The notes below the pieces were generated by a model. That model worked only from the letters and a program-made list of their open reading frames with translations, did not search any database and was not told the DNA's origin. A stretch of DNA of 64,000 nt from Nemertoderma westbladi (lineage: Eukaryota > Animalia > Xenacoelomorpha), in assembly GCA_032718475.1 (NCBI GenBank), contig JAUCBJ010007243.1:62001-126000 (forward strand), in the 5' to 3' direction. How positions within the stretch are numbered: position 1 is the stretch's first letter; the number at the start of each line of letters is the position of its first letter. Position numbers and translations under genes: made by a program. Below, in pieces: positions 13,133 through 61,600 of the stretch.

Positions 13133-13218
13133 TTATCGATGCTAAATTTTAAAAGTATTAATTATTGGGCACTGGACAGTGCCCAATAATTAATACTTTT
13201 AAAATTTAGCATTGATAA
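13133..13218. repeat. Near-perfect palindrome with about 42-bp arms
   Basis: ttatcgatgctaaattttaaaagtattaattattgggcactg-ga-cagtgcccaataattaatacttttaaaatttagcattgataa (one mismatch). Confidence 0.9.
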
Positions 13219-34471: not shown

Positions 34472-34840
34472 GTTCTCCTCAACTGAATCGCCTACTAACA
34501 GTCTCAGTTCCCGGTGACGTCAACGACGTTGCTGTGACGTCACAGAAAAGCGACGTATCCATGGAGATGGATGGTTTCCAGGTAGAGGGGGCCACAGCCA
34601 CAGATTGCTTTGTATTCGGACGGGATTACCTCTGTTTGGTGTGCGGGGACAAGGCCTCCGGTAGACACTACGGGGTGCTCAGTTGCGAGGGTTGCAAGGG
34701 ATTCTTTAAGCGGAGTATCCGTAAAGGTATTCGTTACGCTTGTCGCGGGCAGCGGGATTGCACCGTCACCAAACACCATCGCAACCGGTGTCAGTTCTGT
34801 CGGCTAAAGAAATGTTTGGATATCGGGATGCGGATAGATG
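34472..34840 (+). CDS. NR2C: NR2C (TR2/TR4-like) DNA-binding domain exon, both C4 zinc fingers
   Basis: [31 protein letters not shown]...[30 protein letters not shown] is the TR2/TR4 signature. Acceptor ttttttttag|, donor G|GTAAGA. Confidence 0.93.
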
Positions 34841-36006: not shown

Positions 36007-36346
36007 TGGTTCAACCCCCGGTGACGCGTTTTCTCATTTTTTCCATTTCTGAACAACTTATTACAATATCATTCATTAAAGTTGCATTAACAACTCAACT
36101 ACAATTTATTTATTGTATTAAAGGATATGATGTAATTGATAACTAACTTACACCCCTCTCTCTCATTTAATTCGGCCTGGTAATGTACCCAGTTATTTTG
36201 TCCGCCTTGTTTTTAATTACCAGAAATTGTGTTCATTTGGGATCCCGGCTACACATATTGACTTACTACAGGCTCCCTATAGCAGAGGAAAGTTGCTCAT
36301 TGTTATGCTCAAATCATAACATTGTTTTTGTTTACATTCGATTCAG

Positions 36347-36642
36347 CTGTTCAATGCGAACGGAATCTCAACTCTCCGTTTAAGTTGTTTTCTAATGCCT
36401 TCGAGATGTGCAACGATGAGGATTCACCTTGCCCATCCCTAACCAATCACAGTGAGTCTCCTCCTAACGGCGAACAATTTCCTACCTCTCGGGGTCTGCA
36501 GATGTTTACAGACGGCTCCTTCGGTCTATCGCCGTTACCAACCTCGGCGGTACAGAGCAATGCTGCCTGTCCCGGTGATACTCAGAATACCGTGGCGCCG
36601 GAGGTCTACGATACGTTGTACGACCGGCCAATTTCAGAACAG
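36347..36642 (+). CDS. NR2C: NR2C hinge exon
   Basis: Acceptor attcag|; splicing gives GMRIDAVQCER (T-box, compare TR2 DSVQCER). Donor CAG|GTATGT in phase 0. Confidence 0.85.
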
Positions 36643-36815
36643 GTATGTTCATTGTTCAATTCGAGAACAGATATGTTCAATTCTAGAACAGATATGTTCA
36701 ATTCTAGAACATATATGTTCAATTCTAGAACATATATGTTCAATTCTAGAACATATATGTTCAATTCTAGAAAAGGTATGTTCAATTCTTGAAAAGGTAT
36801 GTTTAATTCTAAAAC
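36628..36815 (+). repeat. 21-bp tandem repeat resembling the adjacent exon/intron junction, about 7-8 units
   Basis: Junction ccaatttcagaacag|gtatg versus unit tcaattctagaaca(g/t)atatg. Confidence 0.85.
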
Positions 36816-36822
36816 GGTCAAA

Positions 36823-39143
36823 CTACTTGGATCGGCATGCTGCATTGCAGCTGCATTTTTCAGAATGCTGTGCCGTCTTGTCGACAAAATTGCGCCGCCA
36901 CTACTCCCTATCACCCATGACATTTGCTAGTTCATCCGCATCTTCAAGGCCAGTGTACTTTAAGATGCGTCTCGAGAAAGTCATGGGCTGTCCACCATGC
37001 TTATTCACTCCATGAAGCTGCCAAAGCACAAGATTATGCTCTGACTGGTCCTCACGGCGAAAGCAATGTCCTGCAAAGCGGAGGCGACTTTGTTCTAGTG
37101 TCAAGCTGTGGGGAACCATTGATACACTTCCAATGTTATATAGTGTCTGGTTGGAGATGTGTGCATTGTACTTGACACAATGAACCCGGCGTAGCATTCT
37201 TGTGAATGTGCCATCCAGAGATTTGGTGTCCTCGGCAGTTGGAGCCCAGCATGAACTCCCATAGAGGAGTACTGGAACTACTGCTGCTCTAAATAATCGG
37301 ACCTTAAGTTTCCGATTAATTCTCTGTGACTTCCAAATCCTGGAAAGCCTATTCAGGGCTGCCCTGTTTGTAATAATAATAGGCCTACAGTAATACTGTA
37401 AAAAAAAATAATAATAATATCAATTTGTTCAAGATTATATTTTATACAGCCCACTGCCTTGTAGATACAGAGATAAACCTACAATATATTACAATAAATA
37501 ATCGATTTAAATTTTGTTTTAAAAAGGGATAGGGTAATTAATATTAGTCAGTCCAGCAGTGAGGTTTTATTGTCAGTATAGTTTAAGACAGAAACTCAAG
37601 AGTCTGTGCATTAGGGCGGTGCGTTTTTTACTTTTTTTTCGATTTCATTGTTCTACCGGTGCACAAAAGTTACCAAATGGTAAAAAAATTTCTTTAAATT
37701 TCGTCTATGTCTTCACGGATCCCAAGAGGGTTGAAATTTTGTGCCATCGCGATGCACCATAATGAAATTTATAACAATATAACACATTGATGAAAGATCA
37801 ATGACTCAAAAAAGAACTTCCTGCATGCATCAAATGTCATCAAATGGGTCCAAACTTAGTTAGATACCAAAATTTTAATTTTTGGATTAAGGGAAGTAGT
37901 GCCACAGGCACATAGCCAGAACTTACTCTTTGGCGCAAGTGATGATTATTCTCAATTTTGGTGATGGACAACTTTTAGTTCTCCTACGGCATTATTATTA
38001 TGCTCATTTGAACCGCAATGACCGATTTATTTAGTGGGGGTAGACACCATCAAAATAAGCATAGAGCGAATAGTTCTTGAGATATTACAGAAAATGTTAA
38101 TTACGGCACAAGTCAACATTACTGCCTTGATGATTTATAGACAAATACACAAAAATGTTACTTCTAATTATCTTAAGGCATCAAAAATAGACACATCACT
38201 GCAACAAATTGATTTAGTGTATACAGGAACCTTCAAAATTAAAGAGCAGTGATTAATTCACTATAGTTTTTGTACAAAATGTGTGGAATGGGTCAACTCA
38301 ATATCAAGTATTAATTGGTGGATATAGTCTTGACATTTTGTAAAATAACTCAAAAACTAATGACTCTACTCTTATTTTGAAGGTGTCTTCACCCATTATA
38401 TCGATCATTTCTGTGATGTGTCTATTCTTGATTCCTTGAGATAATTCAATATATCATTTATAGTGTATTTGTCCATATCACATCAAGGCGGTAATGTAGA
38501 CTTGTGCCGTACTTCACATTTTCTGCGATATCTCAAGAACTATTCGCTCTATGCTTATTTTGATGGTGTCTACCCCCACTAAATCGGAAATTGCGGTTCT
38601 AATGAGCATAATATGAATGCAGTAGGAGAACTCAAAGTTGGCCATCGCGAAAATTGAGAATAATCATCACTTGCGCCAAATGGTAGGTTCTGGCCATTTT
38701 CCTGTGGCACTAGTTTCCTTGACCCAAAAATTAAAATTTTGGTATCTAACTAAATTTGGATCCATTTGATGACATTTGATGCATGCAGGAAGTTCTTTTT
38801 TGATTCATTGATCTTTCATCAATGTGTTATATTGTTATAAATTTCATTAGGGTGCATCGCGATGGCACAAAATTTCAACCCTCTTGGGATCCGTGAAGAT
38901 ATAGACGAAATTTAAAGAAATTTTTTTACCATTTGGTAACTTTTGTGCACCGGTAGAACAATGAAATCGAAAAAAAAGTAAAAAACGCACCGCCCTAATG
39001 CCCATGCCTTTCCCTTACGTATTCGAAGATCCTCACCTGACTTCCGGATCCATAACTTCCATACTTCCGTACTCCTAAGTCATCAGCAAAGTTTAGATCA
39101 GCAGTATTTCCTTGACTTTGTTGTTCGATGTTTGATGAACTCG
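36823..39143 (-). mobile_element. RTE LINE fragment in an NR2C intron, interrupted by a nested insertion of about 1.6 kb
   Basis: 36830-37364 matches 51-583 and resumes at about 39000 (cccatgcctttcccttacgt). Flanked by the direct repeat atgtttaattctaaaacg(g)tcaaa at 36799-36822 and 39144-39166, a probable TSD. Confidence 0.8.
37609..39000. mobile_element. Foldback/palindromic element of about 1.4 kb
   Basis: CATTAGGGCGGTGCGTTTTTTAC... is mirrored by ...GTAAAAAACGCACCGCCCTAATG. The arms are near-perfect at the outer ends and still alignable to about 38280/38335. Confidence 0.9.
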
Positions 39144-39630
39144 ATGTTTAATTCTAAAACGTCAAATGTTTGTTGTGGATATATTGGCTTGATAAAACCA
39201 GTGTGGAGTTTTCGAAACTGAAATGCTGCAGCAAGTAATAAATAATTAGCTAATTAAAGGCCATTTTTTTAATTAGAGAGCAGCTTATTTTTGACCATTA
39301 CTTCGCGAGTTTTGATCGTAAGGCCTTGATTTTGTGCTCATTCTGTTCAAATTCACTTACAATTTTATGATTTTATATGATATTTTCTCATTCAAAACCG
39401 CTGCGAAAAATACAACCTTTTAAAAATTGTGTTCCAACATTCGAGATTTTGCACTCAAATAGATCAGTAATTATTGCTGTTTTCAAAAATATAGGGGTTT
39501 AAGGGTTTTTAAAATAAGCTGACTGACTGCCTAATTTACAAAATGAATTTTAGTTAGTGTTACTATTTCATTCGGAGTAGTAATAAGTCATTACTTTGGA
39601 CAGCCTATGATTTGCTGCTTTTCCTTTCAG

Positions 39631-39706
39631 GATTCGAATGATGACAGCTCCTCCCGAAGTACCGGTATAAATAGAGCTAACGGCACAGTGCAACCAAATA
39701 ATACCG
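39631..39706 (+). CDS. NR2C: NR2C short hinge exon (DSNDDSSSRSTGINRANGTVQPNNT)
   Basis: Strong acceptor ttttcctttcag| and donor G|GTGAGT. Its phases (0 to 1) are what is needed to link the flanking exons. Confidence 0.75.
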
Positions 39707-39953: not shown

Positions 39954-40102
39954 ACCGGATACTCAATCAACATCGATACGAGTTCCAACTGACCACCCCC
40001 CAACCGATTCCAGACCCTCTTACCGTTCACTATATCTGCGAGTCTGCGTCCCGGTTACTCTTCCTTACTATTAATTGGGCGAGAACAATTCCCGCATTCC
40101 AG
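39954..40102 (+). CDS. NR2C: NR2C ligand-binding domain exon (helix 3 region)
   Basis: FQLTTPQPIPDPLTVHYICESASRLLFLTINWARTIPAFQ matches the TR2/TR4 motif HYICESASRLLFL...WARSIPAFQ. AG/GT boundaries. Not in the ORF track. Confidence 0.92.
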
Positions 40103-40355: not shown

Positions 40356-40641
40356 AACCTGGGTCTGGATTGCAGTAGGGACATGCTACGGGCTACATGG
40401 TGCGAGGCGTTCGTGCTGGGACTAGCTCAGTTCGCCCACACAATGTCACTAGCTACCATGCTCACCGCAATAATGAACCATCTACAGGCCAGTCTGCAGC
40501 AGGGTCGTCTCACAGCCGATCGTGTCCGTCATGTGATGGACCACATCTGGAAACTACAGGAGTTTGTGTCGGCAGTCCTCAGACTCAATGTTTCTGATAG
40601 AGAGTACGCCTATCTACGGGCCATTGTATTGTTCAGTCCAG
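40356..40641 (+). CDS. NR2C: NR2C ligand-binding domain exon; remaining exons lie beyond the window
   Basis: NLGLDCSRDMLRATWCEAFVLGLAQ...IMNHLQ...DRVRHVMDHIWKLQEF...EYAYLRAIVLFSP, then the donor G|GTATGT at 40642. Confidence 0.92.
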
Positions 40642-43600
40642 GTATGTTGTATTGTTCAATCCAGGTATGTTGTATTGGACAGTCCAGGTATGTTGTATTG
40701 TTCAGTCCAGGTATGTTGTATTGTTCAGTCCAGGTATGTTGTATTGTTCAGTCCAGGTATGTTATATTGTTCAGGCCAGGTATGTTGTATTGTTCAGTCC
40801 AGGTATGTTGTATTGTTCAGTCCAGGTATGTTGTATTGTTCAGTCCAGGTATGTTCTATTGGACAGTCCAGGTATGTTCTATTGGACAGTCCAGGTATGT
40901 TGTATTGGACAATCCAGGTATGTTATATTGGACAGTCCAGGTATGTTATATTGGACAGTCCAGGTATGTTCTATTGGACAGTCCAGGTATGTTCTATTGG
41001 ACAGTCCAGGTATGTTGTATTGGACAGTCCAGGTATGTTGTATTGTTCAGTCCAGGTATGTCCTATTGGACAGTCCAGGTATGTTCTATTGGACAGTCCA
41101 AGTATGTTGTATTGTTCAGTCCAGGTATGTTGTATTGTTCAGTCCAGGTATGTTGTATTGTTCAGTCCAGGTATGTTCTATTGGACAGTCCAGGTATGTT
41201 CTATTGGACAGTCCAGGTATGTTGTATTGGACAATCCAGGTATGTTATATTGGACAGTCCAGGTATGTTATATTGGACAGTCCAGGTATGTTCTATTGGA
41301 CAGTCCAGGTATGTTCTATTGGACAGTCCAGGTATGTTCTATTGGACAGTCCAGGTATGTTGTATTGTTCAGTCCAGGTATGTTGTATTGTTCAGTCCAG
41401 GTATGTTCTATTGGACAGTCCAGGTATGTTCTATTGGACAGTCCAGGTATGTTGTATTGTTCAGTCCAGGTATGTTCTATTGGACAGTCCAGGTATGTTG
41501 TATTGTTCAGTCCAGGTATGTTCTATTGGACAGTCCAGGTATGTTGTATTGGACAGTCCAGGTATGTTGTATTGTTCAGTCCAGGTATGTCCTATTGGAC
41601 AGTCCAGGTATGTTCTATTGGACAGTCCAAGTATGTTGTATTGGACAGTCCAGGTATGTTCTATTGGACAGTCCAGGTATGTTGTATTGTTCAGTCCAGG
41701 TATGTTGTATTGTTCAGTCCAGGTATGTTGTATTGTTCAGTCCAGGTATGTTCTATTGGACAGTCCAGGTATGTTCTATTGGACAGTCCAGGTATGTTGT
41801 ATTGTTCAGTCCAGGTATGTTGTATTGTTCAGTCCAGGTATGTTGTATTGTTCAGTCCAGGTATGTTCTATTGGACAGTCCAGGTATGTTCTATTGGACA
41901 GTCCAGGTATGTTGTATTGTTCAGTCCAGGTATGTTGTATTGGACAATCCAGGTATGTTCTATTGGACAGTCCAGGTATGTTCTATTGGACAGTCCAGGT
42001 ATGTCCTATTGGACAGTCCAGGTATGTTCTATTGGACAGTCCAGGTATGTTCTATTGGACAGTCCAGGTATGTCCTATTGGACAGTCCAGGTATGTTCTA
42101 TTGGACAGTCCAGGTATGTTCTATTGGACAGTCCAGGTATGTTGTATTGGACAGTCCAGGTATGTTCTATTGGACAGTCCAGGTATGTTCTATTGGACAG
42201 TCCAGGTATGTCCTATTGGACAGTCCAGGTATGTTCTATTGGACAGTCCAGGTATGTTGTATTGTTCAGTCCAGGTATGTTCTATTGGACAATCCAGGTA
42301 TGTTCTATTGGACAGTCCAGGTATGTTCTATTGGACAGTCCAGGTATGTCCTATTGGACAGTCCAGGTATGTTCTATTGGACAGTCCAGGTATGTTCTAT
42401 TGGACAGTCCAGGTATGTCCTATTGGACAGTCCAGGTATGTTCTATTGGACAGTCCAGGTATGTTCTATTGGACAGTCCAGGTATGTTGTATTGGACAGT
42501 CCAGGTATGTTCTATTGGACAGTCCAGGTATGTTCTATTGGACAGTCCAGGTATGTCCTATTGGACAGTCCAGGTATGTTCTATTGGACAGTCCAGGTAT
42601 GTTGTATTGTTCAGTCCAGGTATGTTCTATTGGACAGTCCAGGTATGTTCTATTGGACAGTCCAGGTATGTTATATTGGACAGTCCAGGTATGTTCTATT
42701 GTTCAGTCCAGGTATGTTGTATTGGACAGTCCAGGTATGTCCTATTGGACAGTCCAGGTATGTTCTATTGGACAGTCCAGGTATGTTCTATTGGACAGTC
42801 CAGGTATGTTCTATTGGACAGTCCAGGTATGTTCTATTGGACAGTCCAGGTATGTTGTATTGGACAGTCCAGGTATGTTCTATTGGACAGTCCAGGTATG
42901 TTCTATTGGACAGTCCAGGTATGTTGTATTGTTCAGTCCAGGTATGTTGTATTGTTCAGTCCAGGTATGTTGTATTGGACAATCCAGGTATGTTCTATTG
43001 GACAGTCCAAGTATGTTGTATTGTTCAGGCCAGGTATGTTCTATTGGACAGTCCAGGTATGTTCTATTGGACAGTCCAGGTATGTTGTATTGGACAGTCC
43101 AGGTATGTCCTATTGGACAGTCCAGGTATGTTCTATTGGACAGTCCAGGTATGTTCTATTGGACAGTCCAGGTATGTTCTATTGGACAGTCCAGGTATGT
43201 TCTATTGGACAGTCCAGGTATGTTCTATTGGACAGTCCAAGTATGTTGTATTGTTCAGGCCAGGTATGTTCTATTGGACAGTCCAGGTATGTTCTATTGG
43301 ACAGTCCAGGTATGTTGTATTGGACAGTCCAGGTATGTCCTATTGGACAGTCCAGGTATGTTGTATTGTTCAGTCCAGGTATGTTCTATTGGACAGTCCA
43401 GGTATGTTCTATTGGACAGTCCAGGTATGTTGTATTGGACAGTCCAGGTATGTTCTATTGGACAGTCCAGGTATGTTCTATTGGACAGTCCAGGTATGTT
43501 CTATTGGACAGTCCAGGTATGTTCTATTGGACAGTCCAGGTATGTTGTATTGGACAGTCCAGGTATGTTCTATTGGACAGTCCAGGTATGTTCTATTGGA

Positions 43601-46600
43601 CAGTCCAGGTATGTTCTATTGGACAGTCCAGGTATGTTGTATTGTTCAGTCCAGGTATGTTCTATTGGACAGTCCAGGTATGTTCTATTGGACAGTCCAG
43701 GTATGTTGTATTGGACAGTCCAGGTATGTTCTATTGGACAGTCCAGGTATGTTCTATTGGACAGTCCAGGTATGTTGTATTGGACAGTCCAGGTATGTTG
43801 TATTGGACAGTCCAGGTATGTTCTATTGGACAGTCCAGGTATGTTCTATTGGACAGTCCAGGTATGTTCTATTGGACAGTCCAGGTATGTTGTATTGGAC
43901 AGTCCAGGTATGTTCTATTGGACAGTCCAGGTATGTTCTATTGGACAGTCCAGGTATGTTCTATTGGACAGTCCAGGTATGTTGTATTGGACAGTCCAGG
44001 TATGTTGTATTGGACAGTCCAGGTATGTTGTATTGGACAGTCCAGGTATGTTCTATTGGACAGTCCAGGTATGTTCTATTGGACAGTCCAGGTATGTTCT
44101 ATTGGACAGTCCAGGTATGTTGTATTGGACAGTCCAGGTATGTTGTATTGGACAGTCCAGGTATGTTCTATTGTTCAGTCCAGGTATGTTCTATTGGACA
44201 GTCCAGGTATGTTATATTGGACAGTCCAGGTATGTTTTATTGGACAGTCCAGGTATGTTCTATTGGACAGTCCAGGTATGTCCTATTGGACAGTCCAGGT
44301 ATGTTCTATTGGACAGTCCAGGTATGTTCTATTGGACAGTCCAGGTATGTTGTATTGGACAGTCCAGGTATGTTGTATTGGACAGTCCAGGTATGTCCTA
44401 TTGGACAGTCCAGGTATGTCCTATTGGACAGTCCAGGTATGTCCTATTGGACAGTCCAGGTATGTTCTATTGGACAGTCCAGGTATGTTCTATTGGACAG
44501 TCCAGGTATGTTCTATTGGACAGTCCAGGTATGTTGTATTGGACAGTCCAGGTATGTCCTATTGGACAGTCCAGGTATGTTCTATTGGACAGTCCAGGTA
44601 TGTTCTATTGGACAGTCCAGGTATGTTGTATTGGACAGTCCAGGTATGTTGTATTGGACAGTCCAGGTATGTCCTATTGGACAGTCCAGGTATGTTCTAT
44701 TGGACAGTCCAGGTATGTTGTATTGGACAGTCTAGGTATGTCCTATTGGACAGTCCAGGTATGTTCTATTGGACAGTCCAGGTATGTTCTATTGGACAGT
44801 CCAGGTATGTTGTATTGGACAGTCCAGGTATGTCCTATTGGACAGTCCAGGTATGTTCTATTGGACAGTCCAGGTATGTTCTATTGGACAGTCCAGGTAT
44901 GTTGTATTGGACAGTCCAGGTATGTTGTATTGGACAGTCCAGGTATGTCCTATTGGACAGTCCAGGTATGTTCTATTGGACAGTCCAGGTATGTTCTATT
45001 GGACAGTCCAGGTATGTTCTATTGTTCAGTCCAGGTATGTCCTATTGGACAGTCCAGGTATGTTGTATTGGACAATCCAGGTATGTTCTATTGGACAGTC
45101 CAAGTATGTTGTATTGTTCAGGCCAGGTATGTTCTATTGGACAGTCCAGGTATGTTCTATTGGACAGTCCAGGTATGTTGTATTGGACAGTCCAGGTATG
45201 TCCTATTGGACAGTCCAGGTATGTTCTATTGGACAGTCCAGGTATGTTCTATTGGACAGTCCAGGTATGTTCTATTGGACAGTCCAGGTATGTTCTATTG
45301 GACAGTCCAGGTATGTTGTATTGGACAGTCCAGGTATGTTCTATTGGACAGTCCAGGTATGTTCTATTGGACAGTCCAGGTATGTTGTATTGTTCAGTCC
45401 AGGTATGTTGTATTGGACAATCCAGGTATGTTCTATTGTTCAGTCCAGGTATGTTCTATTGGACAGTCCAGGTATGTTATATTGGACAGTCCAGGTATGT
45501 TTTATTGGACAGTCCAGGTATGTCCTATTGGACAGTCCAGGTATGTTCTATTGGACAGTCCAGGTATGTTCTATTGGACAGTCCAGGTATGTTCTATTGG
45601 ACAGTCCAGGTATGTTGTATTGGACAGTCCAGGTATGTTGTATTGGACAGTCCAGGTATGTCCTATTGGACAGTCCAGGTATGTTCTATTGGACAGTCCA
45701 GGTATGTTCTATTGGACAGTCCAGGTATGTTCTATTGTTCAGTCCAGGTATGTCCTATTGGACAGTCCAGGTATGTTGTATTGGACAATCCAGGTATGTT
45801 CTATTGGACAGTCCAAGTATGTTGTATTGTTCAGGCCAGGTATGTTCTATTGGACAGTCCAGGTATGTTCTATTGGACAGTCCAGGTATGTTGTATTGGA
45901 CAGTCCAGGTATGTCCTATTGGACAGTCCAGGTATGTTCTATTGGACAGTCCAGGTATGTTCTATTGGACAGTCCAGGTATGTTCTATTGGACAGTCCAG
46001 GTATGTTCTATTGGACAGTCCAGGTATGTTGTATTGGACAGTCCAGGTATGTTCTATTGGACAGTCCAGGTATGTTCTATTGGACAGTCCAGGTATGTTG
46101 TATTGTTCAGTCCAGGTATGTTGTATTGGACAATCCAGGTATGTTCTATTGTTCAGTCCAGGTATGTTCTATTGGACAGTCCAGGTATGTTATATTGGAC
46201 AGTCCAGGTATGTTTTATTGGACAGTCCAGGTATGTTCTATTGGACAGTCCAGGTATGTCCTATTGGACAGTCCAGGTATGTTCTATTGGACAGTCCAGG
46301 TATGTTCTATTGGACAGTCCAGGTATGTTGTATTGGACAGTCCAGGTATGTTGTATTGGACAGTCCAGGTATGTCCTATTGGACAGTCCAGGTATGTCCT
46401 ATTGGACAGTCCAGGTATGTCCTATTGGACAGTCCAGGTATGTTCTATTGGACAGTCCAGGTATGTTCTATTGGACAGTCCAGGTATGTTCTATTGGACA
46501 GTCCAGGTATGTTGTATTGGACAGTCCAGGTATGTCCTATTGGACAGTCCAGGTATGTTCTATTGGACAGTCCAGGTATGTTCTATTGGACAGTCCAGGT

Positions 46601-49600
46601 ATGTTGTATTGGACAGTCCAGGTATGTTGTATTGGACAGTCCAGGTATGTCCTATTGGACAGTCCAGGTATGTACTATTGGACAGTCCAGGTATGTTGTA
46701 TTGGACAGTCCAGGTATGTCCTATTGGACAGTCCAGGTATGTTCTATTGGACAGTCCAGGTATGTTCTATTGGACAGTCCAGGTATGTTGTATTGGACAG
46801 TCCAGGTATGTCCTATTGGACAGTCCAGGTATGTTCTATTGGACAGTCCAGGTATGTTCTATTGGACAGTCCAGGTATGTTGTATTGGACAGTCCAGGTA
46901 TGTTGTATTGGACAGTCCAGGTATGTCCTATTGGACAGTCCAGGTATGTTCTATTGGACAGTCCAGGTATGTTCTATTGGACAGTCCAGGTATGTTCTAT
47001 TGTTCAGTCCAGGTATGTCCTATTGGACAGTCCAGGTATGTTGTATTGGACAATCCAGGTATGTTCTATTGGACAGTCCAAGTATGTTGTATTGTTCAGG
47101 CCAGGTATGTTCTATTGGACAGTCCAGGTATGTTCTATTGGACAGTCCAGGTATGTTGTATTGGACAGTCCAGGTATGTCCTATTGGACAGTCCAGGTAT
47201 GTTCTATTGGACAGTCCAGGTATGTTCTATTGGACAGTCCAGGTATGTTCTATTGGACAGTCCAGGTATGTTCTATTGGACAGTCCAGGTATGTTGTATT
47301 GGACAGTCCAGGTATGTTCTATTGGACAGTCCAGGTATGTTCTATTGGACAGTCCAGGTATGTTGTATTGGACAGTCCAGGTATGTTGTATTGGACAGTC
47401 CAGGTATGTTCTATTGGACAGTCCAGGTAGGTTGTATTGTTCAGTCCAGGTATGTTGTATTGGACAATCCAGGTATGTTCTATTGGACAGTCCAAGTATG
47501 TTGTATTGTTCAGGCCAGGTATGTTCTATTGGACAGTCCAGGTATGTTCTATTGGACAGTCCAGGTATGTTGTATTGGACAGTCCAGGTATGTCCTATTG
47601 GACAGTCCAGGTATGTTCTATTGGACAGTCCAGGTATGTTCTATTGGACAGTCCAGGTATGTTGTATTGTTCAGTCCAGGTATGTCCTATTGGACAGTCC
47701 AGGTATGTTGTATTGGACATCCAGGTATGTTCTATTGGACAGTCCAAGTATGTTGTATTGTTCAGGCCAGGTATGTTCTATTGGACAGTCCAGGTATGTT
47801 CTATTGGACAGTCCAGGTATGTTGTATTGGACAGTCCAGGTATGTCCTATTGGACAGTCCAGGTATGTTCTATTGGACAGTCCAGGTATGTTCTATTGGA
47901 CAGTCCAGGTATGTTCTATTGGACAGTCCAGGTATGTTGTATTGGACAGTCCAGGTATGTTCTATTGGACAGTCCAGGTATGTTCTATTGGACAGTCCAG
48001 GTATGTTGTATTGGACAGTCCAGGTATGTTCTATTGGACAGTCCAGGTATGTTCTATTGGACAGTCCAGGTATGTTGTATTGGACAGTCCAGGTATGTCC
48101 TATTGGACAGTCCAGGTATGTTCTATTGGACAGTCCAGGTATGTTCTATTGGACAGTCCAGGTATGTTGTATTGGACAGTCCAGGTATGTTGTATTGGAC
48201 AGTCCAGGTATGTCCTATTGGACAGTCCAGGTATGTTCTATTGGACAGTCCAGGTATGTTCTATTGGACAGTCCAGGTATGTTGTATTGTTCAGTCCAGG
48301 TATGTCCTATTGGACAGTCCAGGTATGTTGTATTGGACAGTCCAGGTATGTTCTATTGGACAGTCCAAGTATGTTGTATTGTTCAGGCCAGGTATGTTCT
48401 ATTGGACAGTCCAGGTATGTTCTATTGGACAGTCCAGGTATGTTGTATTGGACAGTCCAGGTATGTCCTATTGGACAGTCCAGGTATGTTCTATTGGACA
48501 GTCCAGGTATGTTGTATTGGACAGTCCAGGTATGTCCTATTGGACAGTCCAGGTATGTTCTATTGGACAGTCCAGGTATGTTCTATTGGACAGTCCAGGT
48601 ATGTTGTATTGGACAGTCCAGGTATGTTCTATTGGACAGTCCAGGTATGTTCTATTGGACAGTCCAGGTATGTTGTATTGGACAGTCCAGGTATGTTCTA
48701 TTGGACAGTCCAGGTATGTTCTATTGGACAGTCCAGGTATGTTGTATTGTTCAGTCCAGGTATGTTGTATTGGACAATCCAGGTATGTTCTATTGGACAG
48801 TCCAGGTATGTTCTATTGGACAGTCCAGGTATGTTCTATTGGACAGTCCAGGTATGTTCTATTGGACAGTCCAGGTATGTTCTATTGGACAGTCCAGGTA
48901 TGTTCTATTGGACAGTCCAGGTATGTTGTATTGGACAGTCCAGGTATGTCCTATTGGACAGTCCAGGTATGTTCTATTGGACAGTCCAGGTATGTTCTAT
49001 TGGACAGTCCAGGTATGTTCTATTGGACAGTCCAGGTATGTTCTATTGGACAGTCCAGGTATGTTCTATTGGACAGTCCAGGTATGTTGTATTGTTCAGG
49101 CCAGGTATGTTCTATTGGACAGTCCAGGTATGTTCTATTGGACAGTCCAGGTATGTTGTATTGGACAGTCCAGGTATGTCCTATTGGACAGTCCAGGTAT
49201 GTTCTATTGGACAGTCCAGGTATGTTCTATTGGACAGTCCAGGTATGTTCTATTGGACAGTCCAGGTATGTTGTATTGGACAGTCCAGGTATGTTGTATT
49301 GTTCAGTCCAGGTATGTTGTATTGGACAGTCCAGGTATGTTCTATTGGACAGTCCAGGTATGTTCTATTGGACAGTCCAGGTATGTTCTATTGGACAGTC
49401 CAGGTATGTTCTATTGGACAGTCCAGGTATGTTCTATTGGACAGTCCAGGTATGTTGTATTGTTCAGTCCAGGTATGTTGTATTGTTCAGTCCAGGTATG
49501 TTCTATTGGACAGTCCAGGTATGTTCTATTGGACAGTCCAGGTATGTTGTATTGGACAGTCCAGGTATGTCCTATTGGACAGTCCAGGTATGTTCTATTG

Positions 49601-52600
49601 GACAGTCCAGGTATGTTGTATTGTTCAGTCCAGGTATGTTCTATTGGACAGTCCAGGTATGTTGTATTGTACAGTCCAGGTATGTTGTATTGGTCAGTCC
49701 AGGTATGTTGTATTGTTCAGTCCAGGTATGTTCTATTGGACAGTCCAGGTATGTCCTATTGGACAGTCCAGGTATGTTCTATTGGACAGTCCAAGTATGT
49801 TGTATTGTTCAGTCCAGGTATGTTCTATTGGACAGTCCAGGTATGTTCTATTGGACAGTCCAGGTATGTTCTATTGGACAGTCCAGGTATGTTGTATTGG
49901 ACAGTCCAGGTATGTCCTATTGGACAGTCCAGGTATGTTCTATTGGACAGTCCAAGTATGTTGTATTGTTCAGTCCAGGTATGTTCTATTGGACAGTCCA
50001 GGTATGTTGTATTGTTCAGTCCAGGTATGTTGTATTGGACAGTCCAGGTATGTCCTATTGGACAGTCCAGGTATGTTCTATTGGACAGTCCAGGTATGTT
50101 GTATTGTTCAGTCCAGGTATGTTCTATTGGACAGTCCAGGTATGTTCTATTAGACAGTCCAGGTATGTTGTATTGTTCAGTCCAGGTATGTTCTATTGGA
50201 CAGTCCAGGTATGTTGTATTGTTCAGTCCAGGTATGTTGTATTGGACAGTCCAGGTATGTCCTATTGGACAGTCCAGGTATGTTCTATTGGACAGTCCAA
50301 GTATGTTGTATTGTTCAGTCCAGGTATGTTCTATTGGACAGTCCAGGTATGTTCTATTGGACAGTCCAGGTATGTTGTATTGTTCAGTCCAGGTATGTTG
50401 TATTGTTCAGTCCAGGTATGTTCTATTGGACAGTCCAGGTATGTTCTATTGGACAGTCCAGGTATGTTGTATTGGACAGTCCAGGTATGTTGTATTGTTC
50501 AGTCCAGGTATGTTCTATTGGACAGTCCAGGTATGTTGTATTGGACAGTCCAGGTATGTTCTATTGGACAGTCCAGGTATGTTGTATTGGACAGTCCAGG
50601 TATGTTGTATTGTTCAGTCCAGGTATGTTCTATTGGACAGTCCAGGTATGTTGTATTGGACAGTCCAGGTATGTTCTATTGGACAGTCCAGGTATGTTCT
50701 ATTGGACAGTCCAGGTATGTTGTATTGGACAGTCCAGGTATGTTGTATTGTTCAGTCCAGGTATGTTCTATTGGACAGTCCAGGTATGTTGTATTGGACA
50801 GTCCAGGTATGTTGTATTGGACAGTCCAGGTATGTTGTATTGGACAGTCCAGGTATGTTCTATTGGACAGTCCAGTCAGGTATGTCTATTGGACAGTCCA
50901 GGTATGTTGTATTGGACAGTCCAGGTAGGTTGTATTGTTCAGTCCAGGTATGTTGTATTGTTCAGTCCAGGTATGTTCTATTGGACAGTCCAGGTATGTT
51001 GTATTGGACAGTCCAGGTATGTCCTATTGGACAGTCCAGGTATGTTCTATTGGACAGTCCAGGTATGTTGTATTGGACAGTCCAGGTATGTTCTATTGGA
51101 CAGTCCAGGTATGTTGTATTGTTCAGTCCAGGTATGTTCTATTGGACAGTCCAGGTATGTTGTATTGGACAGTCCAGGTATGTTCTATTGGACAGTCCAG
51201 TTCAGGTATGTCCTATTGGACAGTCCAGGTATGTTGTATTGGACAGTCCAGGTAGGTTGTATTGTTCAGTCCAGGTATGTTGTATTGTTCAGTCCAGGTA
51301 TGTTCTATTGGACAGTCCAGGTATGTTGTATTGGACAGTCCAGGTATGTCCTATTGGACAGTCCAGGTATGTTCTATTGGACAGTCCAGGTATGTTGTAT
51401 TGGACAGTCCAGGTATGTTCTATTGGACAGTCCAGGTATGTTGTATTGGACAGTCCAGGTATGTTGTATTGTTCAGTCCAGGTATGTTCTATTGGACAGT
51501 CCAGGTATGTTCTATTGGACAGTCCAGGTATGTTGTATTGGACAGTCCAGGTATGTTCTATTGGACAGTCCAGGTATGTTGTATTGGACAGTCCAGGTAT
51601 GTTCTATTGGACAGTCCAGGTATGTTCTATTGGACAGTCCAGGTATGTTCTATTGGACAGTCCAGGTATGTTGTATTGGACAGTCCAGGTATGTTCTATT
51701 GGACAGTCCAGTTCAGGTATGTCCTATTGGACAGTCCAGGTATGTTGTATTGTTCAGTCCAGGTATGTTCTATTGTTCAGTCCAGGTATGTTCTATTGGA
51801 CAGTCCAGGTATGTTCTATTGGACAGTCCAGGTATGTTATATTGTTCAGTCCAGGTATGTTCTATTGGACAGTCCAGGTATGTTGTATTGGACAGTCCAG
51901 GTATGTTCTATTGGACAGTCCAGTTCAGGTATGTCCTATTGGACAGTCCAGGTATGTTGTATTGGACAGTCCAGGTAGGTTGTATTGTTCAGTCCAGGTA
52001 TGTTCTATTGGACAGTCCAGGTATGTTGTATTGGACAGTCCAGGTAGGTTGTATTGTTCAGTCCAGGTATGTTGTATTGGACAATCCAGGTATGTTCTAT
52101 TGGACAGTCCAGGTATGTTGTATTGGACAGTCCAGGTAGGTTGTATTGTTCAGTCCAGGTATGTTGTATTGTTCAATCCAGGTATGTTCTATTGGACAGT
52201 CCAGGTAGGTTGTATTGTTCAGTCCAGGTATGTTGTATTGTTCAGTCCAGGTATGTTCTATTGGACAGTCCAGGTATGTTGTATTGGACAGTCCAGGTAT
52301 GTTCTATTGGACAGTCCAGGTATGTTGTATTGGACAGTCCAGGTATGTCCTATTGGACAGTCCAGGTATGTTGTATTGGACAGTCCAGGTATGTCCTATT
52401 GGACAGTCCAGGTATGTTGTATTGTTCAGTCCAGGTATGTTCTATTGGACAGTCCAAGTATGTTGTATTGTTCAGTCCAGGTATGTTGTATTGGACAGTC
52501 CAGGTATGTCCTATTGGACAGTCCAGGTATGTTCTATTGGACAGTCCAGGTATGTTCTATTGTTCAGTCCAGGTATGTTCTATTGGACAGTCCAGGTATG

Positions 52601-55600
52601 TTGTATTGGACAGTCCAAGTATGTTGTATTGTTCAGTCCAGGTATGTTGTATTGGACAGTCCAGGTATGTCCTATTGGACAGTCCAGGTATGTTCTATTG
52701 GACAGTCCAGGTATGTTCTATTGTTCAGTCCAGGTATGTTCTATTGTTCAGTCCAGGTATGTTGTATTGGACAGTCCAGGTATGTCCTATTGGACAGTCC
52801 AGGTATGTCCTATTGGACAGTCCAGGTATGTTATATTGGACAGTCCAGGTATGTTGTATTGTTCAATCCAGGTATGTTGTATTGGACAGTCCAGGTATGT
52901 TCTATTGGACAGTCCAGGTATGTTATATTGGACAGTCCAGGTATGTTCTATTGGACAGTCCAGGTATGTTGTATTGTTCAGTCCAGGTATGTTGTATTGT
53001 TCAGTCCAGGTATGTTGTATTGGACAGTCCAGGTATGTTGTATTGTTCAATCCAGGTATGTTCTATTGGACAGTCCAGGTATGTTGTATTGGACAGTCCA
53101 GGTATGTTGTATTGTTCAGTCCAGGTATGTTATATTGGACAGTCCAGGTATGTTGTATTGGACAGTCCAGGTATGTTGTATTGTTCAGTCCAGGTATGTT
53201 CTATTGGACAGTCCAGGTATGTTGTATTGGACAGTCCAGGTATGTTCTATTGGACAGTCCAGGTATGTTCTATTGGACAGTCCAGGTATGTTATATTGGA
53301 CAGTCCAGGTATGTTCTATTGGACAGTCCAGGTATGTTATATTGGACAGTCCAGGTATGTTCTATTGGACAGTCCAGGTATGTTGTATTGTTCAGTCCAG
53401 GTATGTTGTATTGTTCAGTCCAGGTATGTTGTATTGTTCAGTCCAGGTATGTTGTATTGTTCAGTCCAGGTATGTTCTATTGGACAGTCCAGGTATGTTC
53501 TATTGGACAGTCCAGGTATGTTATATTGGACAGTCCAGGTATGTTCTATTGGACAGTCCAGGTATGTTGTATTGTTCAGTCCAGGTATGTTGTATTGTTC
53601 AGTCCAGGTATGTTCTATTGGACAGTCCAGGTATGTTGTATTGGACAATCCAGGTATGTTGTATTGGACAGTCCAGGTATGTTCTATTGGACAGTCCAGG
53701 TATGTTGTATTGTTCAGTCCAGGTATGTTGTATTGGACAGTCCAGGTAGGTTGTATTGTTCAGTCCAGGTATGTTGTATTGTTCAATCCAGGTATGTTCT
53801 ATTGGACAGTCCAGGTATGTTGTATTGGACAGTCCAGGTATGTTGTATTGGACAGTCCAGGTATGTTCTATTGGACAGTCCAGGTATGTTATATTGTTCA
53901 GTCCAGGTATGTTGTATTGGACAGTCCAGGTATGTTGTATTGGACAGTCCAGGTATGTTGTATTGGACAGTCCAGGTATGTTGTATTGGACAGTCCAGGT
54001 ATGTTCTATTGGACAGTCCAGGTATGTTGTATTGTTCAGTCCAGGTATGTTCTATTGGACAGTCCAGGTATGTTATATTGTTCAGTCCAGGTATGTTGTA
54101 TTGTTCAATCCAGGTATGTTCTATTGGACAGTCCAGGTATGTTGTATTGTTCAGTCCAGGTATGTTATATTGTTCAGTCCAGGTATGTTGTATTGTTCAA
54201 TCCAGGTATGTTCTATTGGACAGTCCAGGTATGTTGTATTGTTCAGTCCAGGTATGTTATATTGTTCAGTCCAGGTATGTTCTATTGGACAGTCCAGGTA
54301 TGTTGTATTGGACAGTCCAGGTATGTTGTATTGGACAGTCCAGGTATGTTGTATTGGACAGTCCAGGTATGTTCTATTGGACAGTCCAGGTATGTTGTAT
54401 TGTTCAGTCCAGGTATGTTATATTGTTCAGTCCAGGTATGTTGTATTGTTCAATCCAGGTATGTTCTATTGGACAGTCCAGGTATGTTGTATTGTTCAGT
54501 CCAGGTATGTTGTATTGTTCAATCCAGGTATGTTCTATTGGACAGTCCAGGTATGTTGTATTGTTCAGTCCAGGTATGTTGTATTGGACAGTCCAGGTAT
54601 GTTGTATTGTTCAGTCCAGGTATGTTGTATTGTTCAGTCCAGGTATGTTCTATTGGACAGTCCAGGTATGTTGTATTGTTCAGTCCAGGTATGTTGTATT
54701 GGACAGTCCAGGTATGTTGTATTGTTCAGTCCAGGTATGTTGTATTGTTCAGTCCAGGTATGTTGTATTGTTCAATCCAGGTATGTTCTATTGGACAGTC
54801 CAGGTATGTTCTATTGGACAGTCCAGGTATGTTGTATTGGACAGTCCAGGTATGTTGTATTGTTCAGTCCAGGTATGTTCTATTGGACAGTCCAGGTATG
54901 TTGTATTGGACAGTCCATGTATGTTGTATTGTTCAATCCAGGTATGTTCTATTGGACAGTCCAGGTATGTTGTATTGTTCAGTCCAGGTATGTTCTATTG
55001 GACAGTCCAGGTATGTTGTATTGGACAGTCCATGTATGTTGTATTGTTCAGTCCAGGTATGTTCTATTGGACAGTCCAGGTATGTTGTATTGGACAGTCC
55101 AGGTATGTTCTATTGGACAGTCCAGGTATGTTCTATTGGACAGTCCAGGTATGTTGTATTGTTCAGTCCAGGTATGTTCTATTGGACAGTCCAGGTATGT
55201 TCTATTGGACAGTCCAGGTATGTTCTATTGGACAGTCCAGGTAGGTTGTATTGGACAGTCCAGGTATGTTATATTGTTCAGTCCAGGTATGTTGTATTGT
55301 TCAGTCCAGGTATGTTGTATTGTTCAGTCCAGGTATGTTCTATTGGACAGTCCAGGTATGTTGTATTGGACAGTCCATGTATGTTGTATTGTTCAGTCCA
55401 GGTATGTTCTATTGGACAGTCCAGGTATGTTGTATTGTTCAGTCCAGGTATGTTCTATTGGACAGTCCAGGTATGTTGTATTGTTCAATCCAGGTATGTT
55501 CTATTGGACAGTCCAGGTATGTTGTATTGTTCAGTCCAGGTATGTTCTATTGGACAGTCCAGGTATGTTGTATTGTTCAGTCCAGGTATGTTCTATTGGA

Positions 55601-58600
55601 CAGTCCAGGTATGTTGTATTGGACAGTCCATGTATGTTGTATTGTTCAATCCAGGTATGTTCTATTGGACAGTCCAGGTATGTTGTATTGTTCAGTCCAG
55701 GTATGTTCTATTGGACAGTCCAGGTATGTTGTATTGGACAGTCCATGTATGTTGTATTGGACAATCCAGGTATGTTGTATTGTTCAGGCCAGGTATGTTG
55801 TATTGTTCAATCCAGGTATGTTCTATTGGACAGTCCAGGTATGTTGTATTGGACAGTCCAGGTATGTTCTATTGGACAGTCCAGGTATGTTGTATTGGAC
55901 AGTCCATGTATGTTGTATTGTTCAGGCCAGGTATGTTGTATTGTTCAATCCAGGTATGTTCTATTGGACAGTCCAGGTATGTTGTATTGGACAGTCCAGG
56001 TATGTTCTATTGGACAGTCCAGGTATGTTGTATTGGACAGTCCATGTATGTTGTATTGTTCAATCCAGGTATGTTCTATTGGACAGTCCAGGTATGTTGT
56101 ATTGTTCAGTCCAGGTATGTTCTATTGGACAGTCCAGGTATGTTGTATTGGACAGTCCAGGTATGTTGTATTGTTCAATCCAGGTATGTTCTATTGGACA
56201 GTCCAGGTATGTTGTATTGTTCAGTCCAGGTATGTTCTATTGGACAGTCCAGGTATGTTGTATTGGACAGTCCATGTATGTTGTATTGTTCAATCCAGGT
56301 ATGTTCTATTGGACAGTCCAGGTATGTTGTATTGGACAGTCCAGGTATGTTCTATTGGACAGTCCAGGTATGTTGTATTGGACAGTCCATGTATGTTGTA
56401 TTGGACAGTCCAGGTATGTTGTATTGGACAGTCCAGGTATGTTGTATTGTTCAATCCAGGTATGTTCTATTGGACAGTCCAGGTATGTTGTATTGGACAG
56501 TCCATGTATGTTGTATTGGACAGTCCAGGTATGTTGTATTGGACAGTCCATGTATGTTCTATTGGACAGTCCAGGTATGTTGTATTGGACAGTCCATGTA
56601 TGTTGTATTGGACAGTCCAGGTATGTTGTATTGGACAGTCCATGTATGTTCTATTGGACAGTCCAGGTATGTTGTATTGGACAATCCATGTATGTTGTAT
56701 TGGACAGTCCAGGTATGTTGTATTGGACAGTCCATGTATGTTGTATTGGACAGTCCAGGTATGTTGTATTGGACAGTCCAGGTATGTTGTATTGTTCAAT
56801 CCAGGTATGTTCTATTGGACAGTCCAGGTATGTTGTATTGGACAGTCCAGGTATGTTGTATTGTTCAATCCAGGTATGTTCTATTGGACAGTCCAGGTAT
56901 GTTGTATTGGACAGTCCAGGTATGTTCTATTGGACAGTCCAGGTATGTTGTATTGGACAGTCCAGGTATGTTGTATTGTTCAATCCAGGTATGTTCTATT
57001 GGACAGTCCAGGTATGTTGTATTGGACAGTCCATGTATGTTGTATTGGACAGTCCAGGTATGTTGTATTGGACAGTCCATGTATGTTCTATTGGACAGTC
57101 CAGGTATGTTGTATTGGACAGTCCATGTATGTTGTATTGGACAGTCCAGGTATGTTGTATTGGACAGTCCATGTATGTTCTATTGGACAGTCCAGGTATG
57201 TTGTATTGGACAGTCCATGTATGTTGTATTGGACAGTCCAGGTATGTTGTATTGGACAGTCCATGTATGTTGTATTGGACAGTCCAGGTATGTTGTATTG
57301 GACAGTCCAGGTATGTTGTATTGTTCAATCCAGGTATGTTCTATTGGACAGTCCAGGTATGTTGTATTGGACAGTCCAGGTATGTTGTATTGTTCAATCC
57401 AGGTATGTTCTATTGTTCAGTCCAGGTATGTTCTATTGGACAGTCCAGGTATGTTGTATTGGACAGTCCATGTATGTTGTATTGTTCAATCCAGGTATGT
57501 TCTATTGGACAGTCCAGGTATGTTGTATTGGACAGTCCAGGTATGTTCTATTGTTCAGTCCAGGTATGTTCTATTGGACAGTCCAGGTATGTTGTATTGG
57601 ACAGTCCAGGTATGTTCTATTGTTCAGTCCAGGTATGTTCTATTGGACAGTCCAGGTATGTTGTATTGGACAGTCCAGGTATGTTCTATTGTTCAGTCCA
57701 GGTATGTTCTATTGGACAGTCCAGGTATGTTGTATTGGACAGTCCATGTATGTTGTATTGTTCAATCCAGGTATGTTCTATTGGACAGTCCAGGTATGTT
57801 GTATTGGACAGTCCAGGTATGTTCTATTGTTCAGTCCAGGTATGTTCTATTGGACAGTCCAGGTATGTTGTATTGGACAGTCCAGGTATGTTCTATTGGA
57901 CAGTCCAGGTATGTTGTATTGTTCAGTCCAGGTATGTTGTATTGGACAGTCCAGGTATGTTCTATTAGACAGTCCAGGTATGTTCTATTGTTCAGTCCAG
58001 GTATGTTCTATTGGACAGTCCAGGTATGTTGTATTGGACAGTCCATGTATGTTGTATTGTTCAATCCAGGTATGTTCTATTGGACAGTCCAGGTATGTTG
58101 TATTGGACAGTCCAGGTATGTTCTATTGTTCAGTCCAGGTATGTTCTATTGGACAGTCCAGGTATGTTGTATTGGACAGTCCAGGTATGTTCTATTGGAC
58201 AGTCCAGGTATGTTGTATTGGACAGTCCAGGTATGTTGTATTGGACAGTCCAGGTATGTTGTATTGGACAGTCCAGGTATGTTCTATTGGACAGTCCAGG
58301 TATGTTGTATTGGACAGTCCAGGTATGTTCTATTAGACAGTCCAGGTATGTTCTATTGTTCAGTCCAGGTATGTTCTATTGGACAGTCCAGGTATGTTGT
58401 ATTGGACAGTCCATGTATGTTGTATTGTTCAATCCAGGTATGTTCTATTGGACAGTCCAGGTATGTTGTATTGGACAGTCCAGGTATGTTCTATTGTTCA
58501 GTCCAGGTATGTTCTATTGGACAGTCCAGGTATGTTGTATTGGACAGTCCAGGTATGTTCTATTGGACAGTCCAGGTATGTTGTATTGTTCAGTCCAGGT

Positions 58601-61600
58601 ATGTTGTATTGGACAGTCCAGGTATGTTCTATTAGACAGTCCAGGTATGTTCTATTGTTCAGTCCAGGTATGTTCTATTGGACAGTCCAGGTATGTTGTA
58701 TTGGACAGTCCATGTATGTTGTATTGTTCAATCCAGGTATGTTCTATTGGACAGTCCAGGTATGTTGTATTGGACAGTCCAGGTATGTTCTATTGTTCAG
58801 TCCAGGTATGTTCTATTGGACAGTCCAAGTATGTTGTATTGTTCAATCCAGGTATGTTCTATTGGACAGTCCAGGTATGTTGTATTGTTCAGTCCAGGTA
58901 TGTTGTATTGTTCAGTCCAGGTATGTTCTATTGGACAGTCCAGGTATGTTGTATTGTTCAATCCAGGTATGTTCTATTGTTCAGTCCAGGTATGTTCTAT
59001 TGGACAGTCCAAGTATGTTGTATTGTTCAATCCAGGTATGTTCTATTGGACAGTCCAGGTATGTTGTATTGTTCAGTCCAGGTATGTTGTATTGTTCAAT
59101 CCAGGTATGTTCTATTGGACAGTCCAGGTATGTTGTATTGTTCAGTCCAGGTATGTTGTATTGTTCAGTCCAGGTATGTTCTATTGGACAGTCCAGGTAT
59201 GTTGTATTGGACAGTCCATGTATGTTGTATTGTTCAATCCAGGTATGTTCTATTGGACAGTCCAGGTATGTTGTATTGGACAGTCCAAGTATGTTGTATT
59301 GTTCAATCCAGGTATGTTCTATTGGACAGTCCAAGTATGTTGTATTGTTCAATCCAGGTATGTTCTATTGGACAGTCCAGGTATGTTGTATTGTTCAATC
59401 CAGGTATGTTCTATTGGACAGTCCAGGTATGTTGTATTGTTCAGTCCAGGTATGTTCTATTGGACAGTCCAGGTATGTTGTATTGGACAGTCCATGTATG
59501 TTGTATTGTTCAATCCAGGTATGTTCTATTGGACAGTCCAGGTATGTTGTATTGTTCAGTCCAGGTATGTTCTATTGGACAGTCCAGGTATGTTGTATTG
59601 GACAGTCCATGTATGTTGTATTGTTCAATCCAGGTATGTTCTATTGGACAGTCCAGGTATGTTGTATTGGACAGTCCAGGTATGTTGTATTGGACAGTCC
59701 AGGTATGTTCTATTGGACAGTCCAAGTATGTTGTATTGTTCAATCCAGGTATGTTCTATTGGACAGTCCAGGTATGTTGTATTGTTCAGTCCAGGTATGT
59801 TGTATTGGACAGTCCAGGTATGTTGTATTGTTCAGTCCAGGTATGTTGTATTGGACAATCCAGGTATGTTGTATTGTTCAGTCCAGGTATGTTGTATTGG
59901 ACAGTCCATGTATGTTGTATTGTTCAATCCAGGTATGTTCTATTGGACAGTCCAAGTATGTTGTATTGTTCAATCCAGGTATGTTCTATTGGACAGTCCA
60001 GGTATGTTGTATTGTTCAATCCAGGTATGTTCTATTGGACAGTCCAAGTATGTTGTATTGTTCAATCCAGGTATGTTCTATTGGACAGTCCAGGTATGTT
60101 GTATTGTTCAATCCAGGTATGTTCTATTGGACAGTCCAGGTATGTTGTATTGTTCAGTCCAGGTATGTTGTATTGGACAGTCCATGTATGTTGTATTGTT
60201 CAATCCAGGTATGTTCTATTGGACAGTCCAAGTATGTTGTATTGTTCAATCCAGGTATGTTCTATTGGACAGTCCAGGTATGTTGTATTGTTCAATCCAG
60301 GTATGTTCTATTGGACAGTCCAGGTATGTTGTATTGTTCAGTCCAGGTATGTTCTATTGGACAGTCCAGGTATGTTGTATTGGACAGTCCAGGTATGTTG
60401 TATTGTTCAATCCAGGTATGTTCTATTGGACAGTCCAGGTATGTTGTATTGTTCAGTCCAGGTATGTTCTATTGGACAGTCCAGGTATGTTGTATTGGAC
60501 AGTCCATGTATGTTGTATTGTTCAATCCAGGTATGTTCTATTGGACAGTCCAGGTATGTTGTATTGTTCAGTCCAGGTATGTTCTATTGGACAGTCCAGG
60601 TATGTTGTATTGGACAGTCCATGTATGTTGTATTGTTCAATCCAGGTATGTTCTATTGGACAGTCCAGGTATGTTGTATTGGACAGTCCAGGTATGTTCT
60701 ATTGGACAGTCCAGGTATGTTGTATTGGACAGTCCATGTATGTTGTATTGTTCAATCCAGGTATGTTCTATTGGACAGTCCAGGTATGTTGTATTGTTCA
60801 GTCCAGGTATGTTCTATTGGACAGTCCAGGTATGTTGTATTGGACAGTCCAGGTATGTTGTATTGGACAATCCAGGTATGTTCTATTGGACAGTCCATGT
60901 ATGTTGTATTGTTCAATCCAGGTATGTTCTATTGGACAGTCCAGGTATGTTGTATTGGACAGTCCAGGTATGTTCTATTGGACAGTCCAGGTATGTTGTA
61001 TTGGACAGTCCATGTATGTTGTATTGTTCAATCCAGGTATGTTCTATTGGACAGTCCAGGTATGTTGTATTGTTCAGTCCAGGTATGTTCTATTGGACAG
61101 TCCAGGTATGTTGTATTGGACAGTCCAGGTATGTTGTATTGGACAATCCAGGTATGTTCTATTGGACAGTCCATGTATGTTGTATTGTTCAATCCAGGTA
61201 TGTTCTATTGGACAGTCCAGGTATGTTGTATTGGACAGTCCAGGTATGTTCTATTGGACAGTCCAGGTATGTTGTATTGGACAGTCCATGTATGTTGTAT
61301 TGTTCAATCCAGGTATGTTCTATTGGACAGTCCAGGTATGTTGTATTGTTCAGTCCAGGTATGTTCTATTGGACAGTCCAGGTATGTTGTATTGTTCAAT
61401 CCAGGTATGTTCTATTGGACAGTCCAGGTATGTTGTATTGGACAGTCCAGGTATGTTCTATTGGACAGTCCAGGTATGTTGTATTGGACAGTCCATGTAT
61501 GTTGTATTGTTCAATCCAGGTATGTTCTATTGGACAGTCCAGGTATGTTGTATTGGACAGTCCATGTATGTTGTATTGTTCAATCCAGGTATGTTCTATT

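Follow-up and report, generated by a model that had tools for sequence, protein, structure and literature searches.

A 21-mer tandem array at the hinge donor of an NR2C (TR2/TR4)-like nuclear receptor gene is a junction-spanning minisatellite, of a kind already described in lancelets and humans, and is an ordinary further case. We consider it likely that this splice-donor-spanning ("mirage") minisatellite began when slippage locally duplicated positions -6 to +15 around the donor and that it is neutral, since the first donor is the one that is used.

The 21-mer array and its host gene

The gene lies on the plus strand of the window, by which we mean the whole 64,000-nucleotide stretch of DNA that was analyzed, and it hosts the array in an intron. 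Joining the exons at 34472-34840, 36347-36642, 39631-39706, 39954-40102, and 40356-40641 gives a 391-residue frame with no stops. Pfam domains zf-C4 and Hormone_recep are encoded in the exons flanking the hinge exon, and the best PDB matches for these domains are to NR2C2/TR4 (E values of 5e-35 and 3e-32, respectively). The features of the gene and of the array are as follows (a slash marks the splice junction).

36347..36642, plus strand: hinge exon, 296 nt, placed by the open frame over five exons, the flanking Pfam domains, the PDB matches, and the spliced ends in run X4
36637..36664, plus strand: junction copy, with the last 6 exon bases, the authentic donor CAG/GTATGT (G+1 at 36643), the intron start, and 7 extra bases at 36651-36657
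36665..36769, plus strand: units 1 to 5, which lack GT (G+1 changed to A in all five, G-1 changed to T in units 3 to 5)
36770..36811, plus strand: units 6 and 7, with intact pseudo-donors AAG/GTATGT at 36776 and 36797
39631..39706, plus strand: next exon, spliced to the authentic hinge donor, placed by run X4 contigs and the open frame
29965, 34841, 36643, 39707, 40103, and 40642: donors of the gene, reading GTTAGT, GTAAGA, GTATGT, GTGAGT, GTGCGT, and GTATGT, respectively
28857: putative further donor, GTGGGT

TRF called the array at 36653-36815 with a period of 21, 7.8 copies, and 92% matches. When units are read in a register of -6 to +15 around the hinge donor (6 exon bases and 15 intron bases), the junction copy is followed by seven full units at 36665-36811; the last unit of the array is incomplete. 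At the donor position, units 1 and 2 read CAG/AT, units 3 to 5 read CAT/AT, and units 6 and 7 read AAG/GTATG. Units 3 to 5 are identical to one another, and each contains a perfect 14-base palindrome. These readings agree with a preliminary description of this DNA, in which five proximal copies lacked GT and the last two kept aaGGTATG. That description also had the copies follow the hinge donor directly and align with the junction, which was confirmed by TRF and by a match of 18 of 21 positions between unit and junction.

Comparison with shuffled sequence, which the preliminary description had proposed, showed that this 18/21 match is reached by none of 100,000 shuffled versions of the junction region. 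For the exon part alone, 11 of 13 positions agree, a score matched by none of the 1,074 other exonic 13-mers in any rotation. A pattern search allowing up to 3 mismatches hit seven places in the window, all of them within the array or the junction (0.00 expected by chance). The register match, the pattern search, and the exon 13-mer test thus support the earlier proposal that the array derives from the splice junction. The unit combines an exon end with an intron start, the units run head to tail, and the array stands at a real splice site, as in junction-spanning minisatellites generally. Contigs from runs X1 and X2 (different samples from different studies, one of them possibly the source of the window) have no differences from the window over 36200-36721; hence, the array is not an assembly artifact in its 5′ part. 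A run X3 contig has nine differences from the window in 36200-36728 (a count with positions unlisted), and the DNA contigs end inside the array. Run X3 comes from the same sample as X1, which has no differences there, and its contig perhaps represents a second, divergent allele.

The 21-mer might instead belong to a dispersed repeat family, its position at the junction being accidental. It does have a TTCTAGAAC core in common with an inverted-repeat element at 30470-31040, whose best match to any array 21-mer is 17/21. The junction match, however, is in register and adjacent, and it exceeds every other place among 80,642 positions, where the consensus 21-mer reached at best 16/21 outside the array. 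We rejected kinship with the TTCTAGAAC-containing element, the junction match being the better one. Contig depth over the array, taken at a likeness of 85 and with summed depth not used as copy number, was 27-87 in X1, 22-33 in X2, and 7-26 in X3, compared with about 10^6 over the LINE described below. Because the array and the single-copy flank differ in depth by no more than about 4-fold, whereas mobile elements reach 10^4 to 10^6 in the same three runs, a high-copy dispersed family is largely refuted. The preliminary description had named a dispersed family as grounds for abandoning its reading; with no further copy elsewhere in the window when 3 mismatches are allowed and a depth near single copy, we give chance placement of such a family next to no credence.

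Other features of the window were noted in passing. Two 21-mer arrays in opposite orientation lie upstream of the NR2C-like gene, at 27739-27877 and 28239-28390, away from any splice site, and resemble the subterminal repeats of a nonautonomous element. The 10-mer arrays at 11388-12690 and 16285-17492, both long and degenerate, have similar flanks and apparently belong to a duplicated or mobile block. At about 3400-7050 on the minus strand is a metalloprotease-disintegrin gene whose exons are unusually long; it may be intron-poor or a retrocopy, and from its motifs we take it to be ADAM10-like.

Donor use and the adjacent LINE

At a depth of 4907, contigs of run X4 connect 36642 directly to 39631 across GT..AG ends, which shows that the hinge donor at 36643 is real and in use. 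Exon bins are covered at depths of 3,200 to 13,900 and the segment 36684-36804 at zero, and the loose ends of the contigs read as neighboring exons. Run X4 is listed as "DNA?" but behaves as spliced RNA; it is a single run kept as contigs, which drop rare isoforms, and the joints given here are among those listed. Regular splicing is undisturbed by the array in these contigs (one run, in which rare isoforms are invisible). The distance from the true donor to each pseudo-donor is 1 mod 3, which puts all of them out of frame, and use of either 36776 or 36797 would give an early stop.

Downstream, the array is bordered by a mobile element with the following parts.

36799..36822, plus strand: left target-site duplication, which takes in the final 13 bases of unit 7 plus 11 flanking bases, with 23 of 24 columns matching 39144-39166
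36823..39143, minus strand: LINE, 5′-truncated and decayed, with identities of 94.6% and 91.7% to two further copies within the window
37605-39004: element with 425-base terminal inverted repeats, within an insertion nested in the LINE
39144..39166, plus strand: right target-site duplication, with one gap relative to the left copy; X1 and X2 contigs span 39072-39445 with no differences

The LINE, which we take to be RTE-like from motif likeness, has a target-site duplication (23 to 24 bases) together with a short tandem-repeat 3′ tail, as do elements of the RTE clade; contigs of the LINE family terminate at 36822 in a 3-base repeat. The copy is full of stops, and a Pfam search of the frame of a sister LINE copy gave only DUF6451, below the cutoff. 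The nested insertion is about 1.64 kb long, and LINE-family contigs skip 37359-38999. It lies at 37365-39004, contains an apparently noncoding element that has inverted arms of 425 bases and further inverted repeats inside, and is in high copy in the DNA runs. According to the preliminary description, the LINE had entered the last unit after the array was formed. The LINE does abut the array, but its insertion point is just 3′ of the last full unit, and the duplication does not support a later arrival. Under the slippage model, the 13 duplicated bases of unit 7 are original intron, and for this reason the insertion could have come either before or after growth of the array.

Loss of GT from five units

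The same gene carries a second, much larger array at another of its donors, which bears on the fate of the pseudo-donors in the 21-mer array.

40624..64000, plus strand: 23-mer satellite whose unit joins the 18 terminal bases of the ligand-binding-domain exon to GTATG (G+1 of the donor at 40642), from TRF and a unit parse

This sister satellite is more than 23 kb long and runs past the end of the window, within which it comprises 1,008 regular units and 5 irregular pieces. GT is intact in all 1,008 regular units and GTATG in 999. The preliminary description proposed that older arrays may lose competing donors and suggested a test of whether GT positions are mutated more often than others. Among the eight copies of the 21-mer array, 6 of 21 columns vary (-3, -1, +1, +8, +14, and +15), only one of them in the GT; six variable columns would include +1 or +2 with a probability of 0.50 and would place three within -3 to +6 with a probability of 0.52. 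There is thus no excess of change at GT. The five GT-less units share one G+1-to-A change, a single event by parsimony. Given this one shared change, the P value of 0.50, and the intact GT throughout the sister satellite, the proposed loss of competing donors is not supported; nor is the label "older," as both arrays have 92% matches by TRF and so show no age difference. We conclude that a single mutation copied from unit to unit, and not selection, likely accounts for the missing GT in five copies.

The preliminary model, in which proximal pseudo-donors competed with the authentic donor and selection spread a GT-less variant through the nearest units, does account for the order of the units: GT is gone from the five nearest and retained in the two farthest. 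All pseudo-donors are out of frame and would lead to stops if used, and their use would carry some cost; in human 6-16 and CBS, the nearest pseudo-sites are reported to be used (PMC1557585). Yet the loss is a single event that chance alone would give half of the time, and the sister satellite has kept GT in every unit, including the nearest. Border units commonly escape homogenization, according to an account of lancelet arrays (PMC3087553), and the human F7 pseudo-sites are described as not competing with the first donor (PMC1557585). We regard selection as improbable here.

Less probable still is a mutational bias in which GT was lost, not through drift alone or selection, but through quasi-palindrome correction that perfected a donor-centered inverted repeat. 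The two donor changes do turn an inverted repeat with 5-base arms and a 4-base spacer into the perfect 14-base palindrome, as only 8 of 1,890 substitution pairs would, and homogenization of arms via template switching has been described (PMC8604942). The commonest change in the satellite, an adjacent TT-to-GA change, likewise perfects an inverted repeat, which 4 of 207 adjacent double changes would do. However, units 1 and 2 have only one of the two donor changes, so that the conversion was not a one-step event, and with 6 variable columns (15 pairs) the chance of perfecting the palindrome is about 6%. A single switch, worked through by hand, gives inversion or deletion of the spacer instead of the observed letters, and both donor changes are ordinary G-to-A or G-to-T changes in an AT-rich genome. 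Palindrome perfection is a lead for the 23-mer satellite and a weak one for the 21-mer array.

Two related candidates were set aside. The predicted RNA fold of the array (z of -5.6) is of a kind in which tandem self-complementary units alone beat shuffles, and the GU of the true donor is unpaired in the model. A donor hairpin as a common trigger of both arrays was rejected; the inverted-repeat arms are 5 bases long at the 21-mer donor and only 2 in the exon-type 23-mer.

The satellite has further peculiarities of its own. Its columns +1, +2, +3, and +5 are invariant while exon-derived columns vary, a pattern that so few variable columns could yield by chance. The adjacent TT-to-GA change at columns -10/-9 is present in 740 of 1,008 units with only 2 single-change intermediates, and the inverted repeat that it perfects has 5-base arms; such an adjacent double substitution is a possible template-switch signature. 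Irregular pieces at 50853-51930 have 3 to 5 extra bases after the unit end, and three of them are identical 28-mers, which point to higher-order duplication within the satellite.

Origin and relation to known minisatellites

TRF detected arrays at the two GTATGT donors only, the other donors of the gene being array-free. Within the window, 2 of 12 arrays (period of at least 10, about 4 or more copies) begin at a donor, against an expectation of 0.05 to 0.07 (P of 0.001 to 0.002), an enrichment counted after the window had been chosen for such arrays. The earlier view that junction amplification recurs is borne out, in that it occurred twice in the NR2C-like gene. Both amplified donors are CAG/GTATGTT and the other five (one putative) differ; two cases are too few to show a preference for this donor sequence. 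A literature search covering titles and the starts of abstracts, with most subscription journals outside it, found no genome-wide study of junction repeats and no report of a minisatellite having been copied ectopically into a splice donor.

The preliminary description also called the second array independent. A separate donor was indeed amplified, but independence is not supported, since the hinge donor with its intron start and the ligand-binding-domain donor with the first satellite unit agree in 20 of 22 columns. A rarer satellite variant (2 of 1,008 units) agrees with the hinge donor region in 21 of 22. The 23-mer unit or its donor region might have been copied into the hinge donor by template switching or ectopic conversion via CAG/GTATGTT, and the shared donor sequence would then be a result of copying and not a preference. 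The 20/22 likeness is not predicted by local slippage and arose in 35 of 20,000 trials with the 10 shared bases fixed and a random intron and in 87 of 20,000 when a random local duplication was included (0.2 to 0.4%). Against all satellite contexts, the likeness of the hinge was reached in 0 and 3 of 2,000 trials in the nulls. The satellite, moreover, supplies more than 1,000 templates, and the two donors are about 1.7 kb apart without the LINE. The likeness test was, however, chosen after the likeness had been noticed, and a local 7-base duplication of a real 21-mer unit plus one substitution reaches the same scores in 4,839 of 20,000 trials (24%) and in 98 of 2,000. Because local duplication reaches 20/22 so often, the 7 extra bases at 36651-36657 need no distant template. 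The transfer model requires an extra indel and is thus no more parsimonious, and 21-mer-specific sequence is present in 0 of 26 satellite variants. What is left of the likeness, at about 0.4% in this post hoc test, suggests that the arrays may not be independent; we nevertheless consider copying from the satellite unlikely, and the further step, in which the 21-mer arose from the converted donor after loss of the 7 bases, is equally doubtful.

Local slippage remains our preferred origin. The 5′ and 3′ borders of the array, exon end and intron, are one period (21 bases) apart and agree at 8 of 11 positions. This 3′ border repeat could be a slippage seed or a decayed unit. As a seed, the imperfect direct repeat would have promoted the first duplication, and slippage between its two copies, from intron to exon, would have produced a unit with 15 bases of intron and 6 of exon. 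A seed of this kind explains why the units read CT (CG in the lead-in to unit 1) where the exon reads TC, with no mutation needed. Growth would have followed by slippage or unequal exchange. The G+1-to-A change presumably occurred once in an inner unit and was spread by homogenization, G-1 would then have changed to T in part of the units, and the border units would have kept GT. Upstream-first donor choice probably keeps the two intact pseudo-donors silent, and their use would give frameshifted, stop-containing RNA. The LINE would have inserted just 3′ of the array, at either stage. Intact pseudo-donors are tolerated, as seen in every regular unit of the satellite and as described for human F7 (PMC1557585). 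Birth of minisatellites by slippage at noncontiguous or short flanking direct repeats was proposed by Taylor and Breden (2000) and Haber and Louis (1998), as summarized in PMC3389668. The incomplete terminal unit and the imperfect border repeat one period apart conform to these models (PMC3389668); the seed is unlike theirs in being imperfect, perhaps as a decayed unit.

The lancelet "mirage" minisatellites are reported from Adh3 and from the globin genes BflGb6 and BflGb9 (PMC3087553) and from TnC and PGBD5 (PMC3902484). In the account of the former, many but not all units keep splice signals, inner units are homogenized while borders diverge, and the origin is called unclear (PMC3087553). 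As in the arrays so described, the 21-mer spans exon and intron in tandem, its unit is within the 10- to 160-base range, and splicing is normal. Some units keep the splice signal (GT in 2 of 7 here), and inner units are homogenized (units 3 to 5), with the junction copy and units 6 and 7 differing, although there are only 8 copies here. More than one array per gene, as in the NR2C-like gene, is implied for lancelet Adh3 (units of 10 to 72 bp). Unlike lancelet mirages, the 21-mer array has lost GT from 5 of its 7 pseudo-donors, and the sister satellite is far larger than the 3 to 6 units given for BflGb6. Junction arrays are likewise described in human F7 (a 37-bp VNTR in intron 7), 6-16, CBS, LMNB2, and PDGF (PMC1557585). 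In F7, as here, the first monomer spans the donor (4 exon plus 33 intron bases, against 6 plus 15), there are 5 to 9 copies, and the most upstream donor is used (PMC1557585). The F7 pseudo-sites are identical to the authentic donor (PMC1557585), whereas none of the seven 21-mer pseudo-donors is identical over -3 to +6 and five lack GT. The 23-mer satellite, with CAG/GTATG in most of its 1,008 units, has pseudo-donors identical to the authentic donor and in this respect is the closer match to F7.

On our preferred reading, the 21-mer array shows that a majority of dead donors in an array can stem from a single mutation. The two arrays form a natural pair in one gene, with 5 of 7 pseudo-donors dead in one array and more than 1,000 intact in the other, and they make upstream-first donor choice testable in an animal distant from mammals. 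If donor-to-donor copying were true, a giant donor satellite would seed arrays at other donors, here 1.7 to 4 kb upstream, and mirages would spread from junction to junction within a gene. Copying would then provide a mechanism for the clustering of mirages and would explain the likeness of the amplified donors.
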